Shown here: one piece after another, positions 8,236 through 45,483 of the stretch | How the letters are laid out: every line of letters begins with the position of its first letter | How positions within the stretch are numbered: position 1 is the first letter of the stretch | Origin: Longimicrobiales bacterium | GTDB taxonomy: Bacteria; Gemmatimonadota; Gemmatimonadetes; Longimicrobiales; Gaopeijiaceae | Direction: 5' to 3' | Length of the DNA stretch: 64,000 nt | Assembly (NCBI GenBank): GCA_965248195.1 | Contig: CBDFIQ010000002.1 | Span: 160,001 to 224,000, forward strand | The notes under the pieces: generated by a model | What the model was told of the DNA's origin: nothing | The model's input: the letters and a program-made list of their open reading frames with translations, nothing else | Database searches by the model: none | Position numbers and translations under genes: made by a program

Positions 8236-8257
8236 GGGGCGCCCCAAGCTCGCATGG

Positions 8258-30270: not shown

Positions 30271-31262
30271 GGGATGCCCCGACTTCAGTGAGGGAGGTCG
30301 GCTCCTGCGTTCTTTGCAGCGGTCCCGACAGCCTCGACCTTGCGGTCTGCCTCGATTGCGCGAGTCGCACGGGGGACGGCCTCGTGTTCGTGCGTCAATC
30401 CATCCGGAAGGCTGAGCGCGCGAGGATCGTCGAGCATCTACACGGAATCCTACCGCCAGGGGTCGAGTGGGAAGAGTTCAAGTTGGCTGCCAAGGGCTAT
30501 TTGCCGCTGGCTTCGGTGCCTTTCCCTGCTGCCAAGCAGGTTCTCGAGGCCTTCGCCCGCAAAAGTGTGCCGGCCCAACTCATTCCGAGGCGTTGGGGGG
30601 TGGCTCCGATTCCGCCGGGCCTCGGACTCGTGCTCTTGTCCGTGTTGATGGCGGGCACCCTGGTAGGTCTCGTTTCGGGTCAACTACTCTTCTTTGGGAG
30701 CGCCCTTTACGCCGGCCTTCTCTGGATTCTGGCCCAAATCCATCTCCGGAGACCGGCCGCGTGCGCGGGCAAAAGCGATCCTTGGCTTCCCCGCGACGTC
30801 GAGGAGCGCTTGGTGACGGCTCTCATGAGCTTGCCCGTGGGGACCCCGCGCACGCTCCTTTCGGATGCGGTTCGCCTCGGACGTCTCCTGTGGGAGAGAG
30901 CGAGGGTGACCGAGGACGTCGACATCGTACAGGACACATCCGAGCTCCTGGCTCTCGCCGCCGACGCCGCCACGGATCTGGCGCGGGTCGAGGAGGCCCG
31001 CCGGGTCATGGCGGGCCAGAGAGCCGAGGGCGCGACGGCACCCGTCTCAGATACAGGGGCCCTGCAGGCCATCGAAGCCTCTCGTCAGCGGCTCCACGAC
31101 CTCCTCCTCGACACGGTTCGGGCCATGGGCGGCGCCAACCGACGTCTGCCCGAAGCCGGGGGCCAAGCCGCCGAGCTGGCCCACCTGGCCGACGCCATCG
31201 AGACCAGTCGCGTTGCCCAGGCGGGAGCCGTCGCCGAAGTGGAGCGGCTGCTGGTGTCCTGA
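30267..31262 (+). CDS. hypothetical membrane protein with N-terminal CxxC/CxxC and helical C-terminus
   Basis: CVLC...CLDC, two TM helices, ATGA coupling. Confidence 0.65.
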   Translation: MRDAPTSVREVGSCVLCSGPDSLDLAVCLDCASRTGDGLVFVRQSIRKAERARIVEHLHGILPPGVEWEEFKLAAKGYLPLASVPFPAAKQVLEAFARKSVPAQLIPRRWGVAPIPPGLGLVLLSVLMAGTLVGLVSGQLLFFGSALYAGLLWILAQIHLRRPAACAGKSDPWLPRDVEERLVTALMSLPVGTPRTLLSDAVRLGRLLWERARVTEDVDIVQDTSELLALAADAATDLARVEEARRVMAGQRAEGATAPVSDTGALQAIEASRQRLHDLLLDTVRAMGGANRRLPEAGGQAAELAHLADAIETSRVAQAGAVAEVERLLVS

Positions 31263-31392
31263 GTCAGAATTCCAGCGAGTTTGGTGGGGATTTGCCATCG
31301 CGTGTTTCAAGGCTGTAATGTGTGGGTCCCGTCACGCGAATCCGAGTGGATCGATCCTCCATTCCCCTACACAACGACGCAAGGAGTCAGTG

Positions 31393-31968
31393 ATGAGCAG
31401 CCCTGAGATGAGCTCTAGCGATACCCCCATCGACAACGGCGTGAACGTCCAAGCGCTGCTCGACGCACGGAAAGCGCTGGCCGAGGCGCCTGAGGCCGCC
31501 GAGTTCCAGTGGCGGGCGAAGTGTGAGTGGGTGGAGGGCACCCGCAGTCGCTCCACAGTGGAGGGATTCTTCGGACTCGGCGAGGAGCAGAATCACAAGA
31601 GTGAATTCACCTTCGACGCCGACCACCCCGAGGTCTTCGCGTCGGAAGACCGTGGTGCGACGCCGGTCGAGATCGTGCTGGCCGGCCTGGCGAGCTGCCT
31701 CACTGCCGGCATCGCGTCCGTCGCCCAGCTTCGTGAGATCCAGCTGCATTCCGTCACCGCGACCGTCGAGGGTGGGATGGACATCCAGGGCATCCTCGGC
31801 ATGGACAGCGACGTACGGAACGGTTTCCACGGTATCAAGGTGACCTACACGATCGACGCAGACGCAACATCCGACGAGATCAAGGCGATCGTCGCCCAGT
31901 CGCAGAAGCGGTCGGCCGTCTTCGACGCGATCACGAACCCAACGAACGTCACGATGGTGTCCCGCTGA
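31393..31968 (+). CDS. OsmC/Ohr family protein (last 4 residues replaced by IS256)
   Basis: NGVNV, ADHP, TPVE..LAGLASCLT, SQKRSAVFDAITNP. Confidence 0.9.
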   Translation: MSSPEMSSSDTPIDNGVNVQALLDARKALAEAPEAAEFQWRAKCEWVEGTRSRSTVEGFFGLGEEQNHKSEFTFDADHPEVFASEDRGATPVEIVLAGLASCLTAGIASVAQLREIQLHSVTATVEGGMDIQGILGMDSDVRNGFHGIKVTYTIDADATSDEIKAIVAQSQKRSAVFDAITNPTNVTMVSR

Positions 31969-33409
31969 CAGTTGAAGGTGGTGGCTCCGGAGAGTCTCCT
32001 TGTTAGCCTGCCTTTCTCATTTCGGCAACCGGTTCATGGTCGTCGAGGTGGGCCCTGAGCATCCAGAGCTGGTCGTAGCCGATGATCCTCCGGTAGCTCT
32101 TCTCGGTCTCCACGAACGAGGCCGCAGCCCAGCGCAAGGCCATCGCTCCGTTCTTCCAGTTGGTCACCCTGCGGGTCTTCTGTCTTACGCCCGAGTGGGT
32201 GCTGTCGATCAGGTTGGTCGAGCCCAGGCACTTCCTCAGCCGCGGCGGGAGGCCGAGCCGGTTGATCGTGAACATCTCGCTGAGGCCTTCGCGTAGGCTG
32301 GCCGAGGCCGAGGGGTGGTCGCGCTCGAGCCATCGGGCGAGCTGCTCGAGCTTCTGCTCGCCCTGCTTCGCGTCCAGCTTCATCGCCGCCCGGAACGCCG
32401 CCTTCACCTGAGGATGCTGATCCTTCGGCAGATGACCCAGCACGTTGCGGAGCTTGTGGTTGCGGCAGCGCTGGATGGGGTGACGTTGGCCGAACACCTT
32501 CTCGATCGCCTTCCTGAGCGCTTTCGAGCCATCGATCACGAACAGCCGCCGCCTGCCCGGGTCCAGGCCGCGCTCGACCAGATCCTCTAGGAGCGCGCTG
32601 GTCACCTCGGCGTTCTCACTCGCTCCTTCCCTCACGCCCAGCACGTGCTTCTTTCCGTCTGAGTCCACGCCTACCGCAGCAAGCACGTGGTGCGAGCCCA
32701 TCTGGATCCCGTCCAGGTAGATCACCAGGAGGTCCCACGCATCCAGCCGGCGCTCCATCAGCTCCTTCAGCACGCGCTCCGAGGCCTCGACCGTCTCACG
32801 GCTCACCGCCGACTTGCTCACCCCGACCGTGTCGGCCATCTCACCGATCACACGGCCGTACTTCCGCGTGCTCACCCCCGCCATCAGGACCTCGAGCATC
32901 CGATCCGCCACGGCGCCCGGTCTCCGCATCGCTGCGTACGCCGGCACCTCGACCTCGCCACCCTCCCCGGCGCCCCGGCGCCTGAGCCGTGGCCGCTCCA
33001 CACGCACCTTCCGGTCCGACAGGTAAACCACACCACCCTGCCGGCCATACCACACCGTGTCGTCTTCCGCTCGTGACCGACCTGCCTGCTTCACGCCTGC
33101 CACACCCTCGGCGCTCATCTCCAGCACCGCTTCGATCGTCGCTCGTCCCATCACCTGGATGACTTCGTCGATCGCGACCTCCGTCTGCTCCACGAGCTCA
33201 AGCATCGGAAGCAGAAACTGCCCCTCCCGCTTCAGGAACTCCCTGATCGCGCGCTTGTCCGCCCGATCCCTTACCTCGTACGTTCTCTTCATCGTGGTGG
33301 CTCCGTGTTGGGGTTTTTGCCTACCCGAGCCTATCGGCCCGGGACCCCCGGAGCCACCACTTTTCTTTCTCCCCTATCAGGAACCTTCAACTACGGTTGG
33401 GACAGCTTC
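31953..33409 (-). mobile_element. IS256-family insertion sequence (1457 bp)
   Basis: 8-bp TSD AACGTCAC at 31945-31952 and 33410-33417; 27-bp imperfect IRs GATGGTGTCCC...AGTTGAAGGT / GAAGCTGTCCC...AGTTGAAGGT. Confidence 0.95.
32003..33292 (-). CDS. IS256-family (Mutator) transposase
   Basis: GVSTR, IYLDG, VIDGSKAL, QRCRNHKLRN, STNLIDS. Confidence 0.95.
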   Translation of the reverse strand: MKRTYEVRDRADKRAIREFLKREGQFLLPMLELVEQTEVAIDEVIQVMGRATIEAVLEMSAEGVAGVKQAGRSRAEDDTVWYGRQGGVVYLSDRKVRVERPRLRRRGAGEGGEVEVPAYAAMRRPGAVADRMLEVLMAGVSTRKYGRVIGEMADTVGVSKSAVSRETVEASERVLKELMERRLDAWDLLVIYLDGIQMGSHHVLAAVGVDSDGKKHVLGVREGASENAEVTSALLEDLVERGLDPGRRRLFVIDGSKALRKAIEKVFGQRHPIQRCRNHKLRNVLGHLPKDQHPQVKAAFRAAMKLDAKQGEQKLEQLARWLERDHPSASASLREGLSEMFTINRLGLPPRLRKCLGSTNLIDSTHSGVRQKTRRVTNWKNGAMALRWAAASFVETEKSYRRIIGYDQLWMLRAHLDDHEPVAEMRKAG

Positions 33410-33429
33410 AACGTCACGGTCGAAGTCAA

Positions 33430-34743
33430 CTGACCCGGGAAAGCGGGATTCGAGGACAGGGTCCCGCCCGCACAACTACGGTCGTCATCGGGGCTGGCCA
33501 CGCCGGTTTGGCCATGAGCCGCTGCCTCGCCGACCGCTCGATCGACCATGTGGTCCTCGAGCGGGGTGAGGTGGCCAACACCTGGAAGACCGAGCGGTGG
33601 GACTCGCTGCGGCTACTGACGCCCAACTGGCAGAGTCGATTGCCGGGCTACGGATACGAGGGCGACGATCCTGACGGCTTCCGCACCATGCCCGAGACGA
33701 TCGACTTCATCGAGCGGTACGCCGAGGTGATTTCGGCCCCGGTCCACGCCGGAACCACCGTGACCGCGGTGCGCGGTAGCGGCGAGGGCTACATCGTCGC
33801 CACCGACCAGGGCGATTGGCGATGCCGGACGGTCGTTATCGCTAGCGGAGCGTTTGCCATCCCGCGAATCCCGGCGGTCGCGGAGGCGGTGCCGTTCTCG
33901 ATCGCGACGCTCACGCCGAAGGAGTACCACAACCCGGACCAGCTCGAGCAGGGTGGCGTGCTGATCGTCGGCGCCTCGGCAAGCGGCACACAGATTGCCT
34001 CAGAGATCCACCGCTCGGGTCGGCCCGTGACACTCGCCCTGGGCGAGCACATCCGGGCGCCCCGCGTCTATCGGGGAAAAGACATCAAATGGTGGATGGA
34101 CGGAGCCGGGGTGCTGGACGAGTTCTATACCGAGGTCGACAACATCGACCGGGTTCGGAACGTGCCATCGCTTCAGCTCACGGGCTCCGACGACCGTCGC
34201 ACCCTCGATCTCAACTCCCTGACGGACATCGGCGTGAAGCTCATAGGTCGTCTTGCCGGCATCAACGACGGTATGGCCCAGTTTTCGGGTGCGCTGCGGA
34301 ACCTGTGCGAGATGTCGGACCTCAAAATGAACAGGTTGCTCGACAGGATCGACGATTGGGCGACCGAAAACTCCCTCGACGACGCGGTCGATCCACCGCA
34401 CCGCCTCGAACCCACCAGGGTCGAGGCTTCGCCGCCGCTCGGTATGGACCTCACGAGCGGCGAGATCCGGACCATCCTTTGGGCGACCGGGTTCCGCCCC
34501 GACCACTCCTGGCTCGACGTCCCAGTTCTCGACCGCAAGGGCCGCATCCGGCACGACGGTGGCGTGGTTGAGGCTGCCGGGATGTATTTGATGGGCGTTC
34601 CGTTCCTCCGGCGTCGCAAATCGAGTCTCATCGACGGCGCCAGCGACGATGCCCGTGACTTGAGCGCCCACCTGGCGGCCTACCTCGATGGGAAATCTCC
34701 AGGCGCCGCTGTGCCTGAAGACAGAGTCTCGGCCGTCGGCTAG
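33430..34743 (+). CDS. FAD/NAD(P)-dependent flavoprotein (FMO-like)
   Basis: VIGAGHAG, ERWDSLRLLTPNW, VGASASGTQIA, WATGFRPD; start codon unclear. Confidence 0.85.
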   Translation: MTRESGIRGQGPARTTTVVIGAGHAGLAMSRCLADRSIDHVVLERGEVANTWKTERWDSLRLLTPNWQSRLPGYGYEGDDPDGFRTMPETIDFIERYAEVISAPVHAGTTVTAVRGSGEGYIVATDQGDWRCRTVVIASGAFAIPRIPAVAEAVPFSIATLTPKEYHNPDQLEQGGVLIVGASASGTQIASEIHRSGRPVTLALGEHIRAPRVYRGKDIKWWMDGAGVLDEFYTEVDNIDRVRNVPSLQLTGSDDRRTLDLNSLTDIGVKLIGRLAGINDGMAQFSGALRNLCEMSDLKMNRLLDRIDDWATENSLDDAVDPPHRLEPTRVEASPPLGMDLTSGEIRTILWATGFRPDHSWLDVPVLDRKGRIRHDGGVVEAAGMYLMGVPFLRRRKSSLIDGASDDARDLSAHLAAYLDGKSPGAAVPEDRVSAVG

Positions 34744-34757
34744 GCCACGGCGGGCGG

Positions 34758-35946
34758 CTACACCACAGCGGGCGGGGCCACGAACTCCTGGTCCAAGGTG
34801 CGCAGCAGGCCGACCTCGGCGTTCATCTCTCGGCTTAGGACCAGATGGTCCTCCTTGGCTTCATCCAGATCCCACTCGAACGAGGCGATGTGGTCCGTGA
34901 CGTCGAGCAGACCCTTCACCAGGCCGTCCCGGGTTTCTTGATAACCGGCTAACGCGCCCTCACCGCCGTCCACCACGGCCCGGGCTAGAAGCTCGGCGTC
35001 ACGCAGGGCATCGGTGATCCCGTGCGCGGTAATGGGATCCTTGAAGTAGCCTGCGTCACCGACCAGAGTCCATCCAGGTCCGGAAGCGCGTCGGAGGAAG
35101 CCGGTCGTGCCCGCGAAAGCTCGCAGCTTGCCGGAGGCCTCGCTTGCGTTGACGCTGCGCGCCAGTTCGCGAGACTTCGCTCAGCACGGCGTGGTAAAGG
35201 GCGTCGAGGCCATTCCTTCGCTCCTCTTCGAAGCGAGTCGGCGGAAGCGAAGCGAAGACGCACGTATCCCCATCATTCGTCGGGATGGATCCCACGGCGC
35301 CGCCTATGTTGTAGAGCCAGTGGAATCCCTCCCACCCCAGATCTTTCCAGTAGCCGTAGATGGAGGCGGTCGTGTGGAGGACGGTGTAGTCGAGCTCGGC
35401 TTCCAGAATCCGTGCGACGCGCGATCGGACACCGTCGGCCCCGATGACGAGATCGGCGGCCACATCGATCACGTGTTGGTCGGCTCCGGCGATGTTCGCA
35501 CCGCGGATGCGGCCGTGGGAATCCCGAAGGACATCGACGACGGAGTAGCCGTAGATCACCTCGGCACCGGCTGCCAGAGCGGCGTCGCAAAGTATCGTGT
35601 CCAGGACGGTCCGACGCGGAGCATACAACCCGTCTACATCGTCCCGCTCCTTGATCGAGACTTCGATGGCCTCCTCACCGTAATGGAAGGTGGTCGTCCG
35701 GATGGTGGGGGTCTCGGCCGCCCGGATCGCATCCAGCAGGCCCCAGCGGTGCAGTTGGAGCACGCCGCCCCGCATGAGCGCGTGGGTCGACAAGGTGTCG
35801 CTGCCTCGGCTGGTAGGGTCGACCACGAGGACCCGCATCCCCTGACGGGCGAGGAGCATCGCGGTGGACGCGCCCGCGCATCGCGCGCCGGCGATGACAA
35901 CGTCATAGCGGTTCCGCGTGATCGGCGACTGCACGGTGGAGGCCAT
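34758..35946 (-). pseudogene. FAD-dependent oxidoreductase (geranylgeranyl-reductase-like), frameshifted near 35170
   Basis: GARCAG, IGADGVRS; after the shift LVGDAGYFKDPITAHGITDALRD, reading to 34758. Confidence 0.85.
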
Positions 35947-36002
35947 AGGCCGCAACATGCGGGTCGGCTACACGGGCATCAAGCTCCGTCCACCGCCTGA
36001 TC

Positions 36003-36722
36003 TCAGCCCGGCGTCCTGTCCCGAGTCGGGTCGGATCCCTGGGGAACGGGCCGCGCATTGGGCCGTCGGTCGGGACCCCCGGGTCTCCCGTCGTGGCGCA
36101 CGCGGCGGAGTGACACACCATCCCTCATGGCCCGGAGCATTTGTCCTGCGGCGTCCGGGGCCAGAGCCCCCTCACGCACCAGTCGGCGCAGTGCGGTGGG
36201 TACGTCGAGCAAGCCCTCCTCGCCGGTGGTCCTCACGAACGCTTCCCGCATCACCTCCATGGCCCGTCCCGCGGAAACCCCGGCATCCAGCAGATCGCCC
36301 ATGACCACGAGCGCCATGGGTGTCCGTGTGCCCGCTTCTCGCCCGATCGACGTCAGGGCGTCCGCCGCGACTCCGCGACGCAGGGCGTCGGCCCCGGCCA
36401 CGACCCATGCCGCATCAGGGGTGCCGCCCAGGAGGCCCTGAGCCCGCTGCATCCGTCCCGAAAACTCTCGGAGCGCCGGCATGACCCGTGCGGCGGGGAC
36501 CCGCTTCGCGGCCCCTTCGAGCGCCTTGTCGTACAGAGGGCCGACCGGAACTCCGTTGCGCCCGGCCTGCTCCACGACAGCTTCGATCTGTGCCGCCGCC
36601 TCGAGGGAGTAGGCCTGCCGGAGGCGGGCCACCTGATCCTGTGCGAGCAGAGCGTTCGCCGAGCTAGCGGCCAAAACCGCCGCCAGGATGAGGCTTCTCT
36701 TTACCGTCATTTCGTAAATCAT
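36003..36722 (-). CDS. hypothetical secreted helical protein
   Basis: RBS, signal peptide ending LLA-Q, KALEGAAK motif; last gene of the ECF operon. Confidence 0.7.
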   Translation of the reverse strand: MIYEMTVKRSLILAAVLAASSANALLAQDQVARLRQAYSLEAAAQIEAVVEQAGRNGVPVGPLYDKALEGAAKRVPAARVMPALREFSGRMQRAQGLLGGTPDAAWVVAGADALRRGVAADALTSIGREAGTRTPMALVVMGDLLDAGVSAGRAMEVMREAFVRTTGEEGLLDVPTALRRLVREGALAPDAAGQMLRAMRDGVSLRRVRHDGRPGGPDRRPNARPVPQGSDPTRDRTPG

Positions 36723-36736
36723 CTTGAGTCCCCCCT

Positions 36737-37919
36737 TCACGGGACAACGATTGTAGCGTTCATCTGTCCCCAGTCGTCGCTCACTTGACCCGGGGCCCCC
36801 TCCGGCACGAACCACTCACCGTCGACCAGGAAGCCGAAGTGGTACGTACCGGCCGCCAACGGAATCTCCAGGACCCACGCCCGACCATCTTGGACCATGG
36901 CTTGGGGCTCCCAGCCCGAGAAATCACCTAGGACCTCTATGCGTTGAAGCAGGCCGGTCTTCCACACGGAATTGGGCCGCGGCTCCTCCTGACGTCGACC
37001 GTAACGCCACCACCGGTGTCGCCCCGCGCGGACCGAACCGGACCAGACGGCGACCGATGACCAGGCCTCCCTGTCCACCGGGCTCGCTTCGCACCAGCGG
37101 ATCCGGGTCGGTGCGGCCGCCCACCAACCGGGCGAACCAGTTGGGACCACCCAGCGGCAACGTCACCGAGATGATTCCCGTGGTTTCGCTTCCCAGCGGC
37201 GTGTCCCACACGCTGAGGGTGGCTGTGATGAGGGAACGGTCCGTGCCGGCGCGGACCTGGAGCTCGCTCCTTCGATACGTCCCGGTCTCCGTCTCCAGGA
37301 CGCCATAGGACGCCGACGTCAGCGTCCTTCCGAGCCGTAACTGCAGCTCGGGCCCCCAACCGTGGTGCCAGAGGTCTTGTGAGAACACCCTCACCGCATC
37401 AAGCCGTCGCAGCTCGACCGTGGACGTTCCCTTGCCTCCCTCGCCATAAAGGACGATGGCGACCGGTCCCACGGGAATGCGCACTTCTGGCCGCGCCACC
37501 ATGGTCAGAGCCTGATAGGTGTACGGCTCGCCGACGGCAAAGCCGTACATGGACGCCGACAAGCTGAGCTGGACCGGTCCACCCGCACCGGTCACCGCCT
37601 CTCCGCCGAGAGCGAAGCTCCCCCAATCCCCGCCTATGGCGCCGGTGGTCATCCCTCCGAAGACGCCCGCGAAGACCCCACTTCCCGAGGGCGTCCAGCG
37701 ATCCACCTGCAGCCCGGCCGTGAGGTAGGTCGCGGCCGGGATGTCGGTGCCCGACGGGGCAAATGCTCGGGAGCCCCCGACCTCGATGCGCACCTCACCC
37801 CCCTGGCCGAACGCACCGGCAGGGCGCAATGCGAGCGCCAGGAGAATCGCTCCCGCCGTCCGGCTGAAACATGCCCCGAGGGCGAGGCGGGCTCCGCGGG
37901 CGGAGGGTCGGGTACGCAT
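36737..37919 (-). pseudogene. exported (possible outer-membrane) protein with C-terminal CBM48/AMPK-type glycogen-binding domain, frameshifted near 36947
   Basis: Signal peptide and amphipathic beta-strands; shifted frame gives IEVLGDFSGW...GTYHFGFLVDG...DDWG. Confidence 0.78.
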
Positions 37920-37921
37920 GC

Positions 37922-38536
37922 TCACAGCGTCGTCGGCGGAGCGACGGCCAAGACGGCGTTTTGGTTGCCGAAGCCGTCGTCCGCGTAGCGCTGGGCTCCG
38001 GGATCGGTGACCCAATCGGTGCCGTCGATGACGAACATGTACTTGTGGAGGCCGGGCGTGATCGGGACTCGTCCGGTCCAGATCCCATCGCCATCAGCGT
38101 CCTCGAGGACGAAGTCGCTCTCCCATCCACTGAAGTCACCGGCCACGGCAACCGTCGTGGCTCCGGGGGCTTCGAGGGAAAACTCCACCAGGATCTCGGT
38201 GACGGCGACGGGCCCGAGCTGCTGCTCGACCGGTGTTCTGTTCGGTAACAGCACGACCACGGCTACGGCCGCAGCGGCCATGGCCAGGCTCGTCAGCGGG
38301 GAGAGACGGATGTTGCGCGGCCTGAGCAGCCAGTCGAAAACGCTCTCCCTGGGTGCGCTGGCCAACGCGATCTCGCTCATGACCGCATTCTCCATCCATG
38401 GCGGGGCCTGTTTCGGCTCGTCGGCCTTCATCTCTCCGGTGAGCCTTCGCCAGGCTTCAGCCTCGGCCTGAGCTTCGGGGCTGAGCTCTTCAAGCTCCCG
38501 TTCCCCGTCCATGTAGTCATTCAGTTCATTGTTCAT
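37922..38536 (-). CDS. putative anti-sigma factor with extracytoplasmic CBM48/glycogen-binding domain
   Basis: LNDYMDGE N-terminus, single TM, VAVAGDFSGW...KYMFVIDGTDWVTDP...DGFGNQN; coupled to the sigma gene. Confidence 0.85.
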   Translation of the reverse strand: MNNELNDYMDGERELEELSPEAQAEAEAWRRLTGEMKADEPKQAPPWMENAVMSEIALASAPRESVFDWLLRPRNIRLSPLTSLAMAAAAVAVVVLLPNRTPVEQQLGPVAVTEILVEFSLEAPGATTVAVAGDFSGWESDFVLEDADGDGIWTGRVPITPGLHKYMFVIDGTDWVTDPGAQRYADDGFGNQNAVLAVAPPTTL

Positions 38537-39103
38537 TGGTACACCTTCAACAATGTCTGCAGCTCGTCTCGAGCGCGTAGCACCCTCATTTTCAGAGCCG
38601 ACTTAGAGGCGCCCAGCAGGGTGGCCATCTCGCCGTACGATCGGCCTTCCAAGTGCTTCAACACAAAGGCCTCACGCTGTTCAGGGCTCAGCCTCTCCAA
38701 CGCCTGCTGAACCCGGTCCCTCAACTCCTCTCGCTCCAGGTCCGCGTCCGGCCTCGACCCTTTTCGCCTCTCGAGGGCCAATGCCAGCTTTGCCGACGCT
38801 CCCTCTAGCGAGAGGTCGGCCCTGCGTGGACTCTTCAAGAAATCCTTACAGAGGTTCGCGGCGATCCGGAAGAGCCAGCCACCCACCCACCCGTTCGGGG
38901 TCACGGCAGCGATTCAGCTTCTGAAAGCCGCTCACCAGGGTCTTCTGCACGATGTCGGACGCGTCGTCCGGCTGGCCCACCATCCGGTAGGCGTGTCTGT
39001 ACAGAACATCCTGATACCGGCGGACCAGCACGCGATACATCTCGTGCCGCCCACCCAGGACCTCCCGGACCACCTCGCCGTCGCTGAGTTCTTCCATTGA
39101 CAT
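38533..39103 (-). pseudogene. ECF sigma-70 factor with a 4-bp slippage frameshift
   Basis: Region 2 (LVRRYQ, DDASDIVQ, GGWLFRIAANLC) and region 4 (LSPEQREAFVL, SYGEMATLLG, LKMRVLRAR) are split across frames at 38873-38892. Confidence 0.9.
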
Positions 39104-39133
39104 TAAGAGAAAGTTACCGGGACCTCATACGTA

Positions 39134-39163
39134 AGACGAGGGAAACGTGCCGGGGGTCACATT
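39134..39163 (-). promoter_or_regulatory. predicted ECF promoter upstream of the sigma gene
   Basis: AATGTGACCCCCGGCACGTTTCCCTCGTCT; TGTGAC-N17-CGTC; 24/30 identical to 40454-40483. Confidence 0.7.
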
Positions 39164-39312
39164 CGTTTTCGGGGCGGGAGACGGACGGTGCACCCGAACG
39201 CCCCTGGGGAGGTTGGGAAACGGCGAACGCCGGAGGGGCTTTTCGCCCCCCCGGCGCTGCCGGTGGCGTCGGATGGTCGACGACACTGTGCCGCTCTCGG
39301 CGATATGCGGCT

Positions 39313-40404
39313 TCAGCCGACGATTACCGCTCCAACGACTGCGGCTCTCCAGATCAGCTGGATGCCTCTCGGATGGCCGTTCTCTATGTGCTTGACACCG
39401 GTTTCGAATGCGGCTACGGCCCGTGTCAGCAACTTCTCGAAGAACTCGTTGGGGTTGAGCTCCAACGCAGCCCTGGCGGCCTCGAGCTCGGTTTTGGCCA
39501 GGTCGATGAGGACCTGGAACTCTGAGCTGGCCACATCGGTGAGGGCACGGATTCTGTCATCCGTCACCCGATCAGGCCGGATCACCGCAGTCAGCGACAC
39601 GCTCACGGCCTTGTGGCCGAAGATGATGGCCCGTCGGAAGTGACCGTTCTGGAAGGCTTCCGCAGACGCCGCAGCCAGGCGCGCGGCCGTGTCCAAGAGG
39701 TGCTGCTGGCGCTCGCTGATGTCCGTCCCGCTCAGGAGACGGTTCGCGAGCTCGACCGCCTTGTCGGCCATAGCTACCACCAACCGGGCCCCCTTCTCCG
39801 GATCGGCGTCATGACGCCTGACACGGCTCCGGTCGGTGCGCCGATGCGCATCGATGACCCGCTTACCCGCGGTCACGTCGTCGCCGCGATCGCGTGCGTC
39901 CGTCGCGTCGTCCAAGAACCGATCGACGTCTCTCGCCAAATCACTGGGTCGATCGAAGTCGTCAGTATCACCCGCCGCGAGCAGCCGGCGCACGTCCCGT
40001 ACACGATCGATGAAGTCGTCCAGGCTGGAGCGGTCCCGTCCCTTCGCAAGAGCCCGGCCCAGCGCGTCCCGCGCCCGGTCGCCGAGCGAACGAACCCGCT
40101 CATAATCGCCCCGCGTCAGCTCGACGCGGGCCTCGTTGAATAAGCTATCGGCCGTAAAGATCTCGACGGAGGCCGCGGCCGTCATGTTGGCACTCATGGA
40201 GCTGGATACGTCTTGGATGAGGGCCGCGGTCAGATCGGGATCTGTAGCCATCTCGATCTGCACGTCCTCCATCGGAGGTATTTCGTCGAAGCCCAGATCG
40301 CTGGGCGTATCGGTGCACCCGCTGACGAAGAGTGCTCCCCATAAGAGGAAGATCAACATCAGGAATCCGGTGGCTCCGTTGCTGGAAGCTGGCGCTCTGT
40401 ACAT
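39313..40404 (-). CDS. hypothetical helical lipoprotein
   Basis: AAGGAG RBS; lipobox VSGC; helical repeats. Confidence 0.75.
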   Translation of the reverse strand: MYRAPASSNGATGFLMLIFLLWGALFVSGCTDTPSDLGFDEIPPMEDVQIEMATDPDLTAALIQDVSSSMSANMTAAASVEIFTADSLFNEARVELTRGDYERVRSLGDRARDALGRALAKGRDRSSLDDFIDRVRDVRRLLAAGDTDDFDRPSDLARDVDRFLDDATDARDRGDDVTAGKRVIDAHRRTDRSRVRRHDADPEKGARLVVAMADKAVELANRLLSGTDISERQQHLLDTAARLAAASAEAFQNGHFRRAIIFGHKAVSVSLTAVIRPDRVTDDRIRALTDVASSEFQVLIDLAKTELEAARAALELNPNEFFEKLLTRAVAAFETGVKHIENGHPRGIQLIWRAAVVGAVIVG

Positions 40405-40453
40405 GGTTCTCTCCTTAAAAAAGCAGTGTGTTTCCGAATCGAGGCTGGGAACT

Positions 40454-40483
40454 AGACGAGGGAGGGGTGCTAAGGGTCACATT
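40454..40483 (-). promoter_or_regulatory. predicted ECF promoter upstream of the lipoprotein gene
   Basis: AATGTGACCCTTAGCACCCCTCCCTCGTCT. Confidence 0.7.
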
Positions 40484-40516
40484 AGGGCAGCGCGGAACGC
40501 GGGCCTGGGCCCTAAC

Positions 40517-40563
40517 GTTGAGCGGTGCTCGGATCCTCCATGTTGAGCGGTGCTGGGATCCTC
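40517..40563. repeat. 22-bp direct repeat, period 25, in a divergent intergenic region
   Basis: GTTGAGCGGTGCT(C/G)GGATCCTC twice. Confidence 0.8.
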
Positions 40564-40632
40564 AGCCCCCGTCGGGGTATTGGCTTATCGCGGCGACACG
40601 CTTCTTCACCCACTGATACGTACAGGCCGATC

Positions 40633-43038
40633 ATGTCCACGCCTTCACCGATAGAAGAGTTTCCGTTCGGGACCCGCCTGAGCCTGGCGCACCTCGTCGA
40701 TTTCTGGGAGCGCCAGGACGGGGACCCGAGCTCATTACATGCGCCCCTGGCCCGGGTGATCGTCGAGCAGCTCGAAGAAGCTTCGGAGCTCAGAGGGATC
40801 ATCGACGACGACGCGGTGCTGGACAAACACCGGGAGCTCATCGACCTCATGATGACCGCCATGGTCCCGGCGGGTCGGCGCGAGGACTATTACGCCGCGG
40901 CCGGCGAACCCTTCAAGACACTCTCCCGCTGTTTCTACGAGACGCCGGCGTGGCGGCGGCTAGGGCTTGGCGAGGCCGAGCGCGTCAAGCATCAGCTCAA
41001 CATGGCGCCGGAGCAGTTCGCCTTTGGAAAGCTCATGTGGGCCTACGAGTTTCTGCTCCAGGAGTGGGTGGGCGTCGAGGCGAATCTACAGCCCGGCCTC
41101 GTCATGACCGTACACGACGAGGAGGTCGGGCTGGACAGGCACTTCTCGTTGGACGTCGACCCTCGCTTCACGTCCGTGAGGCTCGTTCGGGACATCGAGA
41201 AGCCGTCCTCGGAGGATGTCGCACGCCTGCTGGCCGAGCCCACTGACATCGACCTCTGGACCGAGGTGCTCCCTCCGGATGCCTTCGAGTTCGATGGCAT
41301 GACGGTGATCACGGCAGTGGACGTCACGCCCCACGAGGTGATCTCGCGACTCAAGAACGACCTCATCGAGAAGGATTCGATGGCGTCACCCGAGAAGATC
41401 GATCGGCTCCAGCATCAGCTCCGTAATCTCCTGGGTTGCCCCGAGCTCAGCCTCGGGCTGATCGCCTTCGACCGGCGGGCCGACGTCGAGGCGATCGAGG
41501 GGGCGAGGGCCGTGGGCAAGAGCCTGCTCCTCTGCGACGAGTGCGCCCCCACCTGCCCGAACCGGGCCAACTCCAGCTATGCGGGAATCTTCGAAGGCAC
41601 GGACCCCGTCATCGTTCAAGACCTTAAGACGTCGGAGTTACGCACCGGCTACGAACACCATCTGCGGAAGCACAGGCACCGTAGTCTCCTTCTCTACCCG
41701 CTCCACGCCGGCGACCAACTGGTCGGGCTCATGGAGCTCGCGTCGCCCAGGCCGGGAGACCTCAACGCCTTCAACGCCCGGCGACTGGCGGATGTCGTTC
41801 CGCTCTTCGCCACCACACTCAAGCACAACCAGGACGAGCTCGAGGATCATGTGCAGGCGGTCATCAAGCGGAAGTACACGGCGATCCACTCGTCTGTCGA
41901 GTGGCGTTTCCGCGATGCCGCCTTGCGTTACCTGGAGGAAAAGGAGAGCGGTGAGGTGAGCCCCGAGCTCGAGCAGATCGTCTTCCATGACGTGTACCCG
42001 CTCTACGGGCTGGTCGACATGCGCGACTCGTCGCGGATACGGAACGAAGCGATTCGGGGGGACCTCAGCGAACAACTCCAACTGGCTCTGGACGTGATCA
42101 ATGCCGCCGGGCAGATACGACCGCTTCTCGCGCTGGAAGAGGTGGGATACCGACTGGCGCAGCATCTCGACCGGATCGAATCCGAGCTCCGCTCAGACGA
42201 CGAATCAGGCATCTTGGAGCTCCTCCGGCGTGACGTGGAGCCGCTATTTGGGCAACTCGACACCTATGGGAGTGATGTGGCGGAGCGCGTGACCTCCTAT
42301 CGCGGGGCGCTCGACGCGGAACTGCAGCTCGTCTATCGCCGCCGCAAGGAATTCGAGCAGAGCGTGGCGGCTTTGAACGACGCCATTTCGATGACGCTGG
42401 ACGCGGAGGAGGAGCGGGCCCAGACCATGTTCCCCCACTTCTTCGAGAAGTTCAGGACGGATGGGGTGGACCACAGTATCTACATCGGCGCTGAGCTCCA
42501 CGAGGACGGGCTGTTCGATGAGCTCTATCTGCGTAATCTCCGGATCTGGCAACTCATGACGACCTGCCGGATCGAGTGGGAGCTCGCCCGGGTCAAGACC
42601 GACATGCCCGTTCCCCTCGAAGCGACCCACCTGATCCTCGTCCAGCATCAGCCGCTCTCGATCCGCTTCCGCATCGACGAGAAGCGCTTCGACGTGGACG
42701 GGGCGTACGACATCCGCTACGAGATCGTCAAGAAGCGCATCGACAAGGCGCGGGTCCGAGGGTCGAGCGAACGCATAACCCAGCCGGGGCAGCTCGCCAT
42801 CGTGTACTCGACGGCCGGTGAGGCTGCCGAGTACAGGAGATACATCGAGTTCCTTCAAAGCAGGGGCTACTTCTCCCCAGGGCTGGAGGAGCTCGAGCTG
42901 GAGGACCTCCCGGGCATCTCCGGGCTCAGGGCGCTGCGAGTCACCATCGCGAGCAGGGGCAAGGCCGACCAGTCGGCCCTGCCGGCTCGACCCTCAGAGG
43001 GCGAGATCGAGGCGGTCCTCACCGGAGAGCAGGCCTAA
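40633..43038 (+). CDS. large GAF domain-containing protein, function unknown
   Basis: GAF-like SLLLYPLHAGDQLVGLMEL; TAIHSSVEWRF, YPLYG, FEKFRTDGVDH, FDVDGAYDIRYEIVKKRIDKA. Confidence 0.8.
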   Translation: MSTPSPIEEFPFGTRLSLAHLVDFWERQDGDPSSLHAPLARVIVEQLEEASELRGIIDDDAVLDKHRELIDLMMTAMVPAGRREDYYAAAGEPFKTLSRCFYETPAWRRLGLGEAERVKHQLNMAPEQFAFGKLMWAYEFLLQEWVGVEANLQPGLVMTVHDEEVGLDRHFSLDVDPRFTSVRLVRDIEKPSSEDVARLLAEPTDIDLWTEVLPPDAFEFDGMTVITAVDVTPHEVISRLKNDLIEKDSMASPEKIDRLQHQLRNLLGCPELSLGLIAFDRRADVEAIEGARAVGKSLLLCDECAPTCPNRANSSYAGIFEGTDPVIVQDLKTSELRTGYEHHLRKHRHRSLLLYPLHAGDQLVGLMELASPRPGDLNAFNARRLADVVPLFATTLKHNQDELEDHVQAVIKRKYTAIHSSVEWRFRDAALRYLEEKESGEVSPELEQIVFHDVYPLYGLVDMRDSSRIRNEAIRGDLSEQLQLALDVINAAGQIRPLLALEEVGYRLAQHLDRIESELRSDDESGILELLRRDVEPLFGQLDTYGSDVAERVTSYRGALDAELQLVYRRRKEFEQSVAALNDAISMTLDAEEERAQTMFPHFFEKFRTDGVDHSIYIGAELHEDGLFDELYLRNLRIWQLMTTCRIEWELARVKTDMPVPLEATHLILVQHQPLSIRFRIDEKRFDVDGAYDIRYEIVKKRIDKARVRGSSERITQPGQLAIVYSTAGEAAEYRRYIEFLQSRGYFSPGLEELELEDLPGISGLRALRVTIASRGKADQSALPARPSEGEIEAVLTGEQA

Positions 43039-43058
43039 GCGATCCGAGCGTCGCGCGG

Positions 43059-44546
43059 TCAGTCCCCGCCGGTCCAGTGCCCTCGCAGTCCCTCGCGGTC
43101 AACCTCGCGGCCTCGGAGGTAGACTCGAGAGATGGTACGCGTGTTTCGGATGTCTTCGAGTGGGTTCGCGTCGAGAATTACGAAATCTGCGGTCTTTCCG
43201 GGGGCGATCGTGCCCATCTCGAACAGTCCGAGTCGTTGCGCGGGGCGGCTGGTGGCCGCAACGATCGCCTGCATCGGCGTCATGCCCAGCCGAACGAAGA
43301 TCTCCAGCTCCCGGTGGCCCGTGTAGCCGAAGAAGTGGTCCGGAACAGCGCCCGCGTCGGTTCCGAGCACGATGTCCACGTCTGCCGCCAAGAGGCGGGA
43401 AAAGGCCTCACTCAACTCCCGTTCCCGTTCCGAAGCCCTCGCGGCCACTCCTTGTGCGGCGGTGCCCCCCTGCACGGTGGCGCCCGCTGGCTGCCGTGCG
43501 TCGTAGGCTTCGCCGAGCCGAGCGGCCACCTCCGGAAGAGTCGCCTCCTGCAGGAATGGATCGTCCCCCACTCGCTCGCGGCGCAGTTCACCCAGGCCGA
43601 GATTGGGGACCAGGAAGGCTCCGGAGTCGCGGATCTGGGCGGCTAAACCGTCGTCCATCGCCGGACCGAGACGCCCGTGAAGGAACCCGGCCACGCCCGC
43701 CTCGAGCAGATCCGGCATGTCCTCAGCGTTCTGCTGGTGGACAATGACCTCGATGCCATGCGCCTGCGCTTCGTCGATGATCGCACGATAGACGTCCCGC
43801 GGCAGTTTCTTCTGGCTCCCCCCCCGATCGTCGACCCAGATCTTGATGAAGGGGATCTCCTTTGCCGAAACTTCGCGGACCGCCGTGCGACCCTCTTCCT
43901 CGGAGGCGACCCCCCTCAGAACGGTCATCCCGGTCTCCTCGGCGATGGCCAATGCATGGCCCAGGAACTGGTTGTTCGGCCCCTGCCCGGGCGGCGCCAT
44001 ACCGGCGCCGAAGAGGAAACGGGCGCCCTCGACCTCCCCCTCCCGCTGCGCTCGTTGGATCTTGATCGCGAGGTCTTCGGGGTCGCTACCGGCCGAGAAG
44101 ACCGCGCCGAACCCGTAGTAGGCATAGCGCTCGAGGTGTTCGATCAGATTCTCGCGCGAGTAGTTTTCGGATCCCCAGCTTGTGTACCCCTCGTAACCCA
44201 GGTGCGCGTGGGCATCGATCAAGGCCGGAATGACCGTCTTTCCAGCAAGGTCGATCGAGGTGGCTCCCGGAGGCGCCGCGACCCCTCCGGTGCGCCCGAC
44301 CTCGAGGATCCGGTCGCCCTCCACGAGGAGGGCCCCGTTCTCGATCATGCCGCCGTCTCCGAGGATCAGCCTGGCTCTCTCGAAGAGGAGCGTCGCGCCG
44401 GGCTGGGTGGGCACCGAAGATGCCGGGGATGCGGCCGTTCCTTCAGGGCCTGGACCGGAATCGGAGGGGGTACATCCTGCCGCAACGCACGCTGCGAGGC
44501 CGATCCCAACCAACAGGTCCCAGTTCGCCGGATTCTTACGTCTCAT
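43059..44546 (-). CDS. amidohydrolase family lipoprotein
   Basis: AAGC lipobox; IDAHAH, IKIWVD, LHG, GTDAG, GKTADFVIL. Confidence 0.9.
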   Translation of the reverse strand: MRRKNPANWDLLVGIGLAACVAAGCTPSDSGPGPEGTAASPASSVPTQPGATLLFERARLILGDGGMIENGALLVEGDRILEVGRTGGVAAPPGATSIDLAGKTVIPALIDAHAHLGYEGYTSWGSENYSRENLIEHLERYAYYGFGAVFSAGSDPEDLAIKIQRAQREGEVEGARFLFGAGMAPPGQGPNNQFLGHALAIAEETGMTVLRGVASEEEGRTAVREVSAKEIPFIKIWVDDRGGSQKKLPRDVYRAIIDEAQAHGIEVIVHQQNAEDMPDLLEAGVAGFLHGRLGPAMDDGLAAQIRDSGAFLVPNLGLGELRRERVGDDPFLQEATLPEVAARLGEAYDARQPAGATVQGGTAAQGVAARASERERELSEAFSRLLAADVDIVLGTDAGAVPDHFFGYTGHRELEIFVRLGMTPMQAIVAATSRPAQRLGLFEMGTIAPGKTADFVILDANPLEDIRNTRTISRVYLRGREVDREGLRGHWTGGD

Positions 44547-44747
44547 GCTGGGCTCCCCCTTGCGCGCTATACCGTGGACCACGTGCCGCCACTACTGCAT
44601 CCCTTCACGCCCACCCTATGCCACGGTCTCGCGTGGAGCAATCCCGCCTCATTTTACACGAAGGCGCTTGCCAGCCACCAAGCATCTTCTCCTGAGCCGC
44701 CCTCCATCTTATACTGTCTCTGCGTAATTCCAATCCAGGAGAGAGTC

Positions 44748-45380
44748 ATGATCCGTCGAATCCCTCTATTCGCCCTCGCGTTCTTCATCGCCGCGCCGCT
44801 GGCAGCTCAGACGCCCGTCGGGCTCCAGCTGCGTCTCGACCACAGCCTGAATGCGGAGGATCCGGACGACGTTCCAAACGTGACCGTGACCAGGTCGGGC
44901 GATGGTTTCCAAGTACGCACTGGACCTGCGGTCACGGCATGGATTTCCGACAACACGGCCATGGGCGCGTACACCCTCTCGGGTACCTTCACTCTCCTGG
45001 AGCCGAGCGGCCATGTAAATTACTACGGCCTCCTCTACGGTGGCGGTGACCTGGAGGGTTCGGGACAGAACTATCTGTACTTCCTGGTCGCGCAGGACGG
45101 AAGCTATCTGGTCAAGCACCGTGCCGGGAATGAAACCACGCACGACATCCAGGGACGTACGACCCACTCGGCCGTTGTGGTGCCGGACGCCAACGGGCGC
45201 TCCGTCAACGCCCTCGAGGTGCGCGTCGGCACGGACACTACCGATTTCGTTGTGAACGGCGTCGTGGTGCATTCGGCTGCCCAGAGCGGGATGGCCGGGC
45301 GCACCGACGGGATCTGGGGTGTACGGGTCAACCACGTGCTTCCTGGCATCCTCGTGGAAGGGCTGGGCATCACGCAGTAG
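44748..45380 (+). CDS. secreted beta-sandwich protein (lectin/DUF1080-like fold possible)
   Basis: AGGAG RBS, signal peptide PLAA-Q, beta-rich sequence. Confidence 0.7.
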   Translation: MIRRIPLFALAFFIAAPLAAQTPVGLQLRLDHSLNAEDPDDVPNVTVTRSGDGFQVRTGPAVTAWISDNTAMGAYTLSGTFTLLEPSGHVNYYGLLYGGGDLEGSGQNYLYFLVAQDGSYLVKHRAGNETTHDIQGRTTHSAVVVPDANGRSVNALEVRVGTDTTDFVVNGVVVHSAAQSGMAGRTDGIWGVRVNHVLPGILVEGLGITQ

Positions 45381-45483
45381 CGCGGTTCTCGCCCCTGGCT
45401 CGTAGGTCGACGGCACACCGGAGATAGCCCCAGGCACGAAGGGGATTAGCGGAGAAGGTCCCTCGGGCCATTCTCCCACCGCC

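Follow-up and report, generated by a model that had tools for sequence, protein, structure and literature searches.

What would an ECF sigma factor respond to when the gene downstream of it encodes a membrane protein with an external glycogen-binding type of domain (CBM48)? Such a pair was found in a 64,000-nt stretch of DNA (the window; contig CBDFIQ010000002.1) from a Longimicrobiales bacterium of the Gemmatimonadota, and the original prediction for it was a system that senses alpha-glucans or works through contacts between CBMs.

Gene order and conservation

Five genes, all on the minus strand and all confirmed in the window sequence, lie within positions 36,003–40,483. They encode a helical lipoprotein, the ECF sigma factor, a predicted class I anti-sigma factor, a predicted outer-membrane beta-barrel with a C-terminal CBM48 and a secreted protein of ten helices (36,003–36,722, minus strand; 239 aa, intact; hereafter the helical protein). 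From the sigma gene onward, the genes are joined by a 4-nt overlap, a second 4-nt overlap and a 14-nt gap; the second overlap uses a GTG start, and an ATG start lies 2 nt beyond the stop. These junctions and the open reading frames bear out the co-orientation and close spacing noticed originally.

Locus counts were taken from the best 80 of 434 confirmed genome loci. The sigma gene stood directly upstream of the anti-sigma-like gene in all 80, and the helical gene lay downstream of the latter in all 69 loci whose flank reached 2 kb or more, making it a core part of the unit. The barrel gene (present in 61/69 loci) and the lipoprotein gene (upstream in 45/70) are optional parts. This gene arrangement is far beyond chance. 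The helical protein occurred in 186 of 301 genomes of the phylum, all of which belong to the 199 genomes that gave an anti-sigma/CBM match. Among metagenome loci (34–74% GC, including Nitrospirota relatives), it was present in 26 of the 27 with enough flank. Judged by sequence, conservation of the unit extends throughout Gemmatimonadota and to other lineages.

The window's copy is a decaying one and is probably inactive, since its sigma and barrel genes are both frameshifted; close kin of the window genome are also losing the unit. The sigma frameshift lies in a 4-nt repeat at about 38,873–38,888 that has one unit more than in 6/6 close relatives. The window allele was not seen across 38,888 in the contigs of X1, X2 and X8, so an assembly error is possible. 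The barrel-gene frameshift, one extra base at 36,947, recurs in the contigs of X1 and part of X2.

The sigma factor and its predicted promoters

The sigma gene (38,533–39,103, minus strand) is split into a 5' piece (38,846–39,103) matching Sigma70_r2 (E 8.5e-10) and a 3' piece (38,533–38,904) matching Sigma70_r4_2 (E 6e-15), both over the Pfam cut-off. With regions 2 and 4 only, and intact orthologues of 182 aa, it belongs to the ECF (group 4) sigma factors. Its nearest solved relatives are of the AlgU/RpoE/SigW type, with AlgU and RpoE the best matches (E 4e-36 to 2e-34). A quick tree placed the Gemmatimonadota sigma factors in one clade (SH-aLRT 99), a support value that does not extend to the join with other triad-bearing sigma factors.

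Two ECF promoters were predicted on the minus strand. Promoter 1 (TGTGAC-N17-CGTCTA; 40,453–40,481) lies upstream of the lipoprotein gene, and the 4.86-Mb genome has just one other site that fits the strict motif; the lipoprotein is a predicted regulon member. Promoter 2 (TGTGAC-N17-CGTCTT; 39,133–39,161) precedes the sigma gene, from which autoregulation is predicted; it is kept in 7/7 aligned close relatives, window included. The motif stood upstream of the operon in 66/67 relatives (antisense, 2; reversed, 0), a CGTTAC variant of the −35 element occurring beside the GTGAC form, and directly before the helical gene in 15/71 loci.

The conserved motif also stands before envelope genes. Pfam matches among the 43 ORFs downstream of motif sites include CarboxypepD_reg, FecR/DUF6600, an OMP barrel and DUF4382; one candidate target is a sugar transferase, and 30 have no Pfam family. 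Several sites fall inside genes, which is put down to chance, and other ECF sigma factors may read the same motif; these two points, the sugar transferase and the targets without a family weigh against the envelope reading.

The anti-sigma-like protein and its CBM48

The anti-sigma-like protein (37,922–38,536, minus strand; 204 aa, intact) has one hydrophobic segment at about residues 79–97, followed by a domain matching AMPK1_CBM (E 5.3e-10) and CBM_48 (E 3.4e-7) above the Pfam cut-offs. Lys and Arg residues flanking the segment total 339 before and 81 after it, the former prevailing in 75/77 homologues. The predicted layout is a cytoplasmic N-terminal domain, one transmembrane helix and a periplasmic CBM48, in agreement with the external position first proposed. 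The match to the anti-sigma model NF052375 (E 1.4e-7, 31.7 bits) lies below its 100-bit cut-off. A zf-HC2 zinc-finger anti-sigma domain (E 2.3e-9) is present in distant full-length homologues, and a profile match over the full length (probability 100, 202 columns) covers a set that includes zf-HC2 proteins; the zinc ligands are absent from the window's protein. Together with the distribution of Lys and Arg, these homologues uphold the prediction of an ECF/single-transmembrane anti-sigma module with an external CBM48 in a diderm.

If the CBM48 bound glycogen or starch fragments directly, in the manner of SigI/RsgI, the helical protein would be a mere regulated output. The domain assignments suit such a sensor, as do the nearest solved relatives of the CBM, namely a pullulanase CBM, AMPK beta and branching enzymes, and glycogen sensing has been proposed in the text on ECF278 subgroup s1 (PMC7826278). 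In AMPK, the sugar is contacted by W100, K126, W133, L146 and T148 (PMC2642990), and glycogen binding is abolished by K126Q and lowered by K126A (PMC6274970, PMC2642990). The window's CBM shares the AMPK beta fold but has M167 at the K126 position, aligned with the Lys of AMPK beta2 QYKF, 27 residues after the first Trp. Lys was found at this column in 0/69 anti-sigma-like rows (55 distinct representatives and 14 near-duplicates; 2 rows gapped) against 312/374 other CBM domains; the frequency of Met itself is biased in the locus-derived alignments, as the search patterns required M or V. The barrel CBM has Gly at this position in 62/63 sequences, and the second CBMs of metagenome loci (n = 28) have Lys in 1, Arg in 3 and His in 3. 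The AMPK-type glycogen site is not preserved: the Trp pair is in place, but K126 is replaced by Met or Gly. Both Trp are invariant (77/77 in the anti-sigma; 62–63 of 63 in the barrel CBM) and the D-G-aromatic-G loop is fully retained, which leaves room for a weak affinity for glucans or for competition by sugars. Polymeric starch is kept out of the periplasm. This, the lost lysine, the strict co-occurrence with the helical gene in different lineages and the strong predicted occupancy of the site by a protein make a direct glucan sensor quite improbable.

The helical protein and its predicted complex with the CBM

The helical protein matched no Pfam family, no PDB sequence and no clear fold, and its nearest clusters are unnamed Gemmatimonadota. 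Its model is all-helical, with ten helices and an invariant K-x-x-E-G-x-A-K motif; (E/Q)Gx(A/S)K is retained in 52/52 metagenome rows that cover the motif. A complex of CBM residues 108–204 and helical residues 1–185 was modelled on orthologue L031, whose proteins are 88% and 83% identical to those of the window. The ipSAE was 0.86 in 3/3 runs, while the best of three controls gave 0.00; the mark applied is reached by 116/157 solved complexes and 2/215 mismatched pairs, and is only a rough guide for models built, as here, on the pair's own alignments. The runs shared at least 95% of contacts, with a partner pLDDT of 91. Recall of a similar complex is unlikely, given that neither a solved relative nor a clear fold match was found for the helical protein.

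In the model, the helical protein is predicted to bind the sugar face of the CBM through its EGxAK motif. The best-resolved contacts join W138, M167, W175 and D187–F189 to K44, E47, G48, A50 and K51, each of the latter five being invariant in 69/69 sequences; Lys51 is predicted to sit among the two conserved Trp, the Met and Asp187 of the CBM. The model thus has the helical protein, and not another CBM as suggested originally, occupying the site.

That the predicted interface is the sugar face itself, with its invariant Trp pair, also suits a sensor in which the helical protein plugs the CBM48 and is displaced when maltodextrins or cyclodextrins pass in through the barrel, freeing the sigma factor. 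This sugar competition keeps an alpha-glucan signal yet requires the helical partner. The lost K126-equivalent lysine speaks against it.

The barrel protein and the lipoprotein

The beta-rich exported protein (36,737–37,925, minus strand; frameshifted) ends in an AMPK1_CBM match (E 3.1e-10). An AlphaFold2 model of the intact orthologue L034 has 14 long strands over residues 6–262 (pLDDT 93), from which we predict a barrel of 14 strands in the outer membrane, with a periplasmic C-terminal CBM48. The top fold matches of the barrel, which share its 14-strand fold, were CymA (Z 19.9, rmsd 3.6 over 247 aa; 11% sequence identity) and OmpG (Z 18.4, rmsd 3.9 over 230 aa; 6%). The C-terminal domain matched the AMPK beta CBM (Z 12.4, rmsd 1.5 over 82 aa), and no solved barrel–CBM48 fusion was found among 50 fold-match rows. 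CymA is a cyclodextrin channel, and as the top match it counts towards sugar competition and against a non-sugar reading; however, OmpG scored nearly as well, so that the shared number of strands alone may account for the match. As the barrel is missing from 8/69 loci, it cannot be the sole input.

The CBMs of the barrel and of the lipoproteins retain the same predicted interface residues as the anti-sigma CBM. This, and the same complex model, would also suit a helical protein that acts as an activator released from the outer-membrane CBM to the anti-sigma on damage, or that, as in cell-surface signalling, bridges the periplasm between the CBMs of both membranes. We consider either improbable: each helical chain has only one EGxAK motif and one predicted site, the barrel is absent from 8/69 loci, and the extra promoter before the helical gene in 15/71 loci fits a feedback brake, as which RseB serves in its own system.

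The window lipoprotein (39,313–40,404, minus strand; 363 aa) has a hydrophobic leader and Cys30. It belongs to no known family, with no Pfam match over the cut-off and no NCBIfam match; its nearest Atlas clusters, unnamed Gemmatimonadota with a score of 0.89, are a lead only.

Glucan enzymes in genomes with the module

GH13 genes occurred in 18/24 genomes bearing the module and in 0/20 module-lacking genomes of the window's family, a contrast that favours sugar competition but is confounded because the genomes compared are kin. In the same direction, the module is being lost in the very lineage that lacks glucan enzymes. However, no GH13, GH57, phosphorylase or full glycogen synthase was found in five module-bearing genomes (G000, G301, G302, G135 and G179), and the modules of G301 and G302 are intact. 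The 43 ORFs downstream of motif sites contained no amylase, glycogen-enzyme or sugar-ABC family, and none of these candidate targets was a gene for taking up or breaking down glucans. We regard sugar competition as unlikely. With the lysine lost, the site predicted filled and the module persisting where no alpha-glucan enzymes were found, the alpha-glucan signal of the original prediction is disfavoured.

A proposed envelope switch

The reading we lean towards, at slightly better than even probability, is a self-inducing envelope switch resembling RpoE–RseA–RseB, in which the CBM48 is a dock for the helical protein and not mainly a starch receptor. The system would monitor the envelope, not starch, because the sugar lysine is lost and the CBM is predicted to clasp the helical protein. 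The N-terminal domain of the anti-sigma would hold the sigma factor, and the helical protein would cap the CBM, protecting the anti-sigma against cleavage at site 1. Competition for the cap may come from another CBM that presents the same surface and is anchored in the outer membrane (barrel-fused here, on a small lipoprotein elsewhere). On loss of the cap, an RseP-type protease would free the sigma factor, which would then transcribe its own operon, the cap, outer-membrane proteins and lipoproteins. An M50 (RseP-type) protease was present in 4/4 genomes tested; no site-1 protease was identified, which counts against this reading. Whether the cap protects or triggers, and what the physical signal is, are guesses.

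More tentatively, as a possibility we rather doubt, the same logic might span the envelope in several phyla. The CBM48 would serve as a lysine-reading dock, and one helical protein would be shared by the inner-membrane anti-sigma CBM and an outer-membrane CBM, barrel-fused or on a lipoprotein; its seat would report outer-membrane assembly and set sigma activity, possibly with maltodextrins as competitors.

If the envelope switch is right, about 60% of the sampled Gemmatimonadota (186/301), as well as Nitrospirota and other lineages, have an unstudied system of this kind, and the window's own decaying copy matters less. The glycogen-sensing label of ECF278s1, and database names such as 'glycoside hydrolase family 13', would be misleading. 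The CBM would illustrate cleanly how a carbohydrate-binding fold can turn to protein binding, with the lost lysine then supplied by the partner. A new protein family would gain a role, within a small and directly testable set of sigma factor, anti-sigma factor and partner.

Comparison with known systems

RpoE–RseA–RseB and AlgU–MucA–MucB comprise an autoregulated ECF sigma factor, a single-pass class I anti-sigma factor, a co-encoded periplasmic partner and envelope targets, all of which are predicted here. The module differs in that a folded CBM48 forms the periplasmic part of the anti-sigma, a second outer-membrane-anchored CBM48 is usual and the promoter is another. RseB is beta-rich, whereas the partner here is all-helical and has no solved relative. 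Homology of the helical protein to RseB/MucB was rejected, given its all-helical model and the lack of Pfam or PDB sequence matches; this leaves the claim that it works like RseB unaffected. Bacillus SigW–RsiW, a zinc-finger class I anti-sigma system, resembles the distant homologues with their zf-HC2 domain, whose loci have TGAAAC/TGTAAC...CGTATT motifs. In contrast, the anti-sigma in the window lacks zinc ligands, and SigW–RsiW has neither the CBM48 nor the helical partner.

Clostridial SigI/RsgI likewise pairs an alternative sigma factor with a membrane anti-sigma that senses polysaccharide (PMC6852018) through an external carbohydrate-module fold. Here, the sigma factor is of the ECF type, the anti-sigma class I-like, the host a diderm and the module periplasmic, with the sugar lysine lost and no glycoside hydrolase regulon found. 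Membership of SigI/RsgI was rejected, as the sigma factor fits ECF models and no RsgI-type Pfam or NCBIfam match appeared at E up to 0.05.

The closest described architecture is that of ECF278s1 from Desulfovibrio and Syntrophobacter, with an anti-sigma at +1 that has one transmembrane helix and a periplasmic AMPK glycogen-recognition domain (Casas-Pastor 2021, PMC7826278). The lack of a known characterisation, as originally stated, thus held in part: the same anti-sigma architecture had been described in silico with glycogen sensing as its proposed role, and no experimental study of such an ECF/AMPK-CBM anti-sigma system was found in the literature, the ECF278s1 text mentioning no studied member. 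The predicted promoters agree in the −35 GTGAC and differ in the −10, which is CGTCT(A/T) here and GTATA there. The ECF278s1 text mentions no helical partner, barrel-CBM or lipoprotein, all of which are present here. It does not list Gemmatimonadetes for ECF278, naming them only in ECF19, 25, 41, 56 and 248. The glycogen sensing proposed there is disfavoured by the evidence here. The idea of an anti-sigma factor with a glycogen domain is not new; the evidence that leads away from glucan sensing is.

Gene content and distribution of the module

All five co-oriented genes of the original prediction were found on the minus strand at 36003–40483, encoding a lipoprotein (39313–40404), an ECF sigma factor (38533–39103), an anti-sigma-like, single-TM protein with a CBM48 domain (37922–38536), a beta-rich protein with a C-terminal CBM48 (the barrel gene, 36737–37925) and a secreted helical protein (36003–36722). 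The two CBM48 domains of the module were the only AMPK1_CBM matches in the whole genome. The module was adjoined, in the window as in close kin, by a divergent gene (40525–43038, plus strand) for an 837-aa protein that has a GAF domain but no recognised output domain. Elsewhere in the same genome, 17 tRNA genes were arrayed within 2.2 kb (G000:C1:1071378–1073597).

Relatives carrying a name belonged to the Longimicrobiales and other Gemmatimonadota. An anti-sigma match was present in 199 of 301 genomes of the phylum (CBM-only matches included), and the helical protein in 186, all of which fell inside the 199. Of 434 loci, the 80 best all had the sigma gene upstream of the anti-sigma gene (80/80). 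The helical gene was present in all 69 of these loci with enough flank (71/80 overall), the barrel gene in 61/69 and the lipoprotein gene in 45/70, while any further neighbour was shared by at most 14 loci, opposite-strand shadows of module genes aside. The core of the module is the sigma factor, the anti-sigma protein and the helical protein. A DUF4382-type lipoprotein recurred in the flanks of about a dozen loci (including L057:1533–2708, L251 and L264) and was encoded upstream of the sigma gene in two loci without the helical lipoprotein, L057 and L102.

A metagenome search seeded with 12 mostly distant representatives yielded 80 loci (best of 561) with 34–74% GC. Of the 27 with enough flank, 26 contained the helical gene, and the (E/Q)Gx(A/S)K motif of its product was kept in 52/52 covering rows (two rows were without coverage). 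The second CBM in these loci was either fused to the barrel or part of a small lipoprotein. Some of the loci were Nitrospirota, going by named cluster members; homologue and cluster look-ups named only Gemmatimonadota, Nitrospirota/Thermodesulfovibrionales and one betaproteobacterial MAG label. A search of a plasmid collection gave no module match. Six metagenome loci with 36% GC (L170, L171, L175, L177, L236 and L237) had a zinc-finger anti-sigma domain and carried the promoter motif described below between sigma and anti-sigma and again past the helical gene.

Anti-sigma protein and CBM48 sugar site

The anti-sigma protein has a single hydrophobic segment. Counted over its homologues, 339 Lys/Arg residues stood before versus 81 after this segment, with an excess before it in 75/77. 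This bias places the CBM outside, in agreement with the external domain originally proposed. The N-terminus matched an antisigma model under the cut-off, and the family aligned full-length with distant members, some of them with zf-HC2. We infer that the protein binds the sigma factor.

In a profile alignment, Y-M-F of the anti-sigma CBM stood opposite Y-K-F of AMPK beta2; spacing from the first Trp identifies the Met column with K126, the AMPK beta lysine for glycogen binding. Glycogen binding is reported to be abolished by K126Q and reduced by K126A (PMC6274970, PMC2642990). Among the hits of an index-free search, Lys occupied this column in 312/374 other CBM domains versus 0/69 anti-sigma-like rows (55 distinct, 14 near-duplicates). 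Met was found in 77/77 sequences of the locus alignment, a figure partly forced by the search pattern. The barrel CBM had Gly at this position in 62/63 sequences, and only 1/28 second CBMs of the metagenome loci had Lys. Both Trp residues and the D-G-aromatic-G loop of the sugar site were still present. In four large proteins (P0121–P0124), where as many as 18 CBM48 repeats stand in tandem, the lysine was mostly kept.

Predicted partner of the anti-sigma CBM48 and model of the barrel

Complex prediction with the CBM (residues 108–204) and helical protein (residues 1–185) of L031, a relative's locus, gave an ipSAE of 0.86 in three runs, against 0.00 for the best control. The ipSAE mark was reached by 116/157 solved complexes and 2/215 mismatched pairs, a calibration that is rough here because our own alignments were used. 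The runs shared at least 95% of contacts, with a partner pLDDT of 91. The predicted interface comprises the sugar face of the CBM (W138, M167, W175, D187–F189) and, on the partner side, five invariant residues (K44, E47, G48, A50, K51), with the modelled K51 contacting W138, W175, M167 and D187. The model supports binding of the helical protein to the anti-sigma CBM.

The helical protein was modelled with 10 helices. Neither it nor the lipoprotein matched a Pfam or NCBIfam family over the cut-off or a PDB sequence; fold searches returned designed helical repeats only (Z at most 9.9), Foldseek gave nothing with E < 0.001, and Atlas matches were unnamed clusters. This lack of family or fold matches does not show a new fold.

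The AlphaFold2 model of an intact barrel orthologue (locus L034, 63-row alignment; pLDDT 93) had 14 long strands followed by the C-terminal CBM. Its top fold match was CymA (Z 19.9, rmsd 3.6, 247 aa), a cyclodextrin channel, and it also matched OmpG (Z 18.4, rmsd 3.9, 230 aa). An even strand number places the C-terminal CBM of the barrel in the periplasm.

Promoter, candidate targets and proposed switch

The motif GT(G/T)AC-N16/17-CGTC(T/C/A)(A/T) was found upstream of the operon in 66/67 loci, versus 2 antisense and 0 reversed; as it was derived from the same loci, it is these controls that carry weight. It also preceded the helical gene in 15/71 loci. The only strict matches in the window's genome were the two module sites (40453–40481 and 39133–39161, minus strand). 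A loose motif gave 34 sites versus 32 expected by chance, so that no further target can be put forward in this genome. No sigma-70 promoter was found, terminator matches were at chance level and Rfam gave no match in 30000–46000. A GC-rich hairpin between the lipoprotein and sigma genes (39228–39264), present in 6/7 aligned sequences, is a possible terminator, not called by the terminator scan.

In other genomes, motif sites versus reversed controls numbered 41 vs 16, 17 vs 2 and 32 vs 5 (the last in 151 genomes), and the motif may be read by other sigma factors too. Of 109 candidate frames lying downstream, 43 that looked non-module and plausible were selected by eye and scanned. Thirteen of the 43 had a Pfam family: carboxypeptidase-regulatory-like (3), DUF4382 (2), FecR/DUF6600, OMP barrel, beta-lactamase-like, a further ECF sigma and four among which chance sites are likely (ceramidase, oxidoreductase, glycosyltransferase, sugar transferase). 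Several of the 30 frames without one resembled lipoproteins or barrels. Amylases, glycogen enzymes and components of sugar ABC systems were absent from the 43. DUF4382 genes recurred both in module flanks and after promoter sites elsewhere.

We lean, with reservations, towards a switch resembling RseA/RseB. The helical protein would cap the anti-sigma CBM, the outer-membrane CBM would compete for the helical protein, and the uncapped anti-sigma would release the sigma factor, so that envelope proteins and more cap would be made. The protease step and the direction of the switch would follow known systems by analogy; an RseP-type protease was found in 4/4 genomes tested. GH13 was encoded in 18/24 module-bearing versus 0/20 module-lacking genomes, all of the latter from one family, which counts against this envelope switch. 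Displacement of the cap by a sugar at the CBM, whose sugar face forms the predicted interface, appears doubtful. A direct glucan sensor is very unlikely. No GH13, GH57, phosphorylase or full glycogen synthase was found in the window's genome (92% complete) or in G301, G302, G135 and G179, and the module is intact in G301 and G302. A reverse or bridging logic of the helical protein would fit the same predicted complex and is unlikely.

Decay of the module in the window's lineage

The window's sigma gene has one extra 4-nt repeat unit compared with 6/6 close relatives, and its barrel gene has one extra base at 36947. Alleles were checked in contigs from 4 of 23 sequencing runs (X1, X2, X5, X8). 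RNA runs contained just 6–16% of the sequence words. The extra barrel base was present at full depth in X1 (0 of 8.2 lacked it) and partly in X2; contigs of X5 and X8 were without it. Sigma contigs without the extra four letters were present in all four runs, and the window's sigma allele was not seen in any contig spanning 38888 in X1, X2 and X8, leaving the sigma break unconfirmed. A general assembly error appears unlikely, as 20/21 non-module stretches compared with kin formed one reading frame and the sole exception adjoins the module and is common to L031. Phase variation was likewise rejected, since a tract of three units versus two is too short and kin are broken otherwise.

In G224, a genome of the same genus, a single deletion of ~4.8 kb removed the sigma, anti-sigma, barrel and helical genes and left the lipoprotein gene and both promoters. 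The sigma gene of L032 has a stop codon, the barrel gene of L033 is split, and the helical gene was present in only 4/47 sampled genomes of the window's family. The decay of the module in this lineage is real; the window copy is degenerate and likely inactive.

Other changes were observed nearby. The G224 deletion (L270; G224:C1:1952000–1964000) joins the orphan sigma promoter to a flavoprotein gene fragment, with the lipoprotein still there. In L033, ~2 kb of unrelated DNA (7386–9400), perhaps a mobile element, separates the lipoprotein from the sigma promoter. A frameshift in the window's FAD-dependent oxidoreductase gene (35056–35958, minus strand) leaves 300 aa, versus 400 aa in L032; as the 300-aa form is common to the window and L031, the break is inherited. 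A 429-aa ORF between OsmC-like and flavoprotein genes (32003–33292, minus strand), which resembles an IS256/mutator-type transposase, is missing from the matching G224 stretch.

Comparison with known systems

The closest described group is ECF278s1 (ECF group 278, subgroup s1; Casas-Pastor 2021), for which the accessible part of the paper gives an anti-sigma at +1 with one TM and a periplasmic AMPK glycogen-recognition site, the promoter GTGAC/GTATA and a proposed role in glycogen sensing (PMC7826278). As far as that text goes, the window module has the same architecture and −35 but differs in −10 and taxa. In a quick tree, the sigma factors of Gemmatimonadota formed one clade (support 99). 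The main text of PMC7406223, in its accessible part, mentions neither ECF278 nor glycogen. A literature search confined to papers outside subscription found neither an experimental study of the module nor a CBM48 turned protein-binder. The glucan-sensing idea of the original prediction is already in print for ECF278s1, as far as the accessible text goes. The missing K126 lysine and the absence of amylase genes among the 43 scanned frames speak against it here, and the idea of a glycogen sensor is probably wrong or incomplete. The module is a multi-phylum, uncharacterised variant of the scheme of ECF sigma factor, anti-sigma and periplasmic partner, in which the predicted repurposing of CBM48 is what is new and testable.
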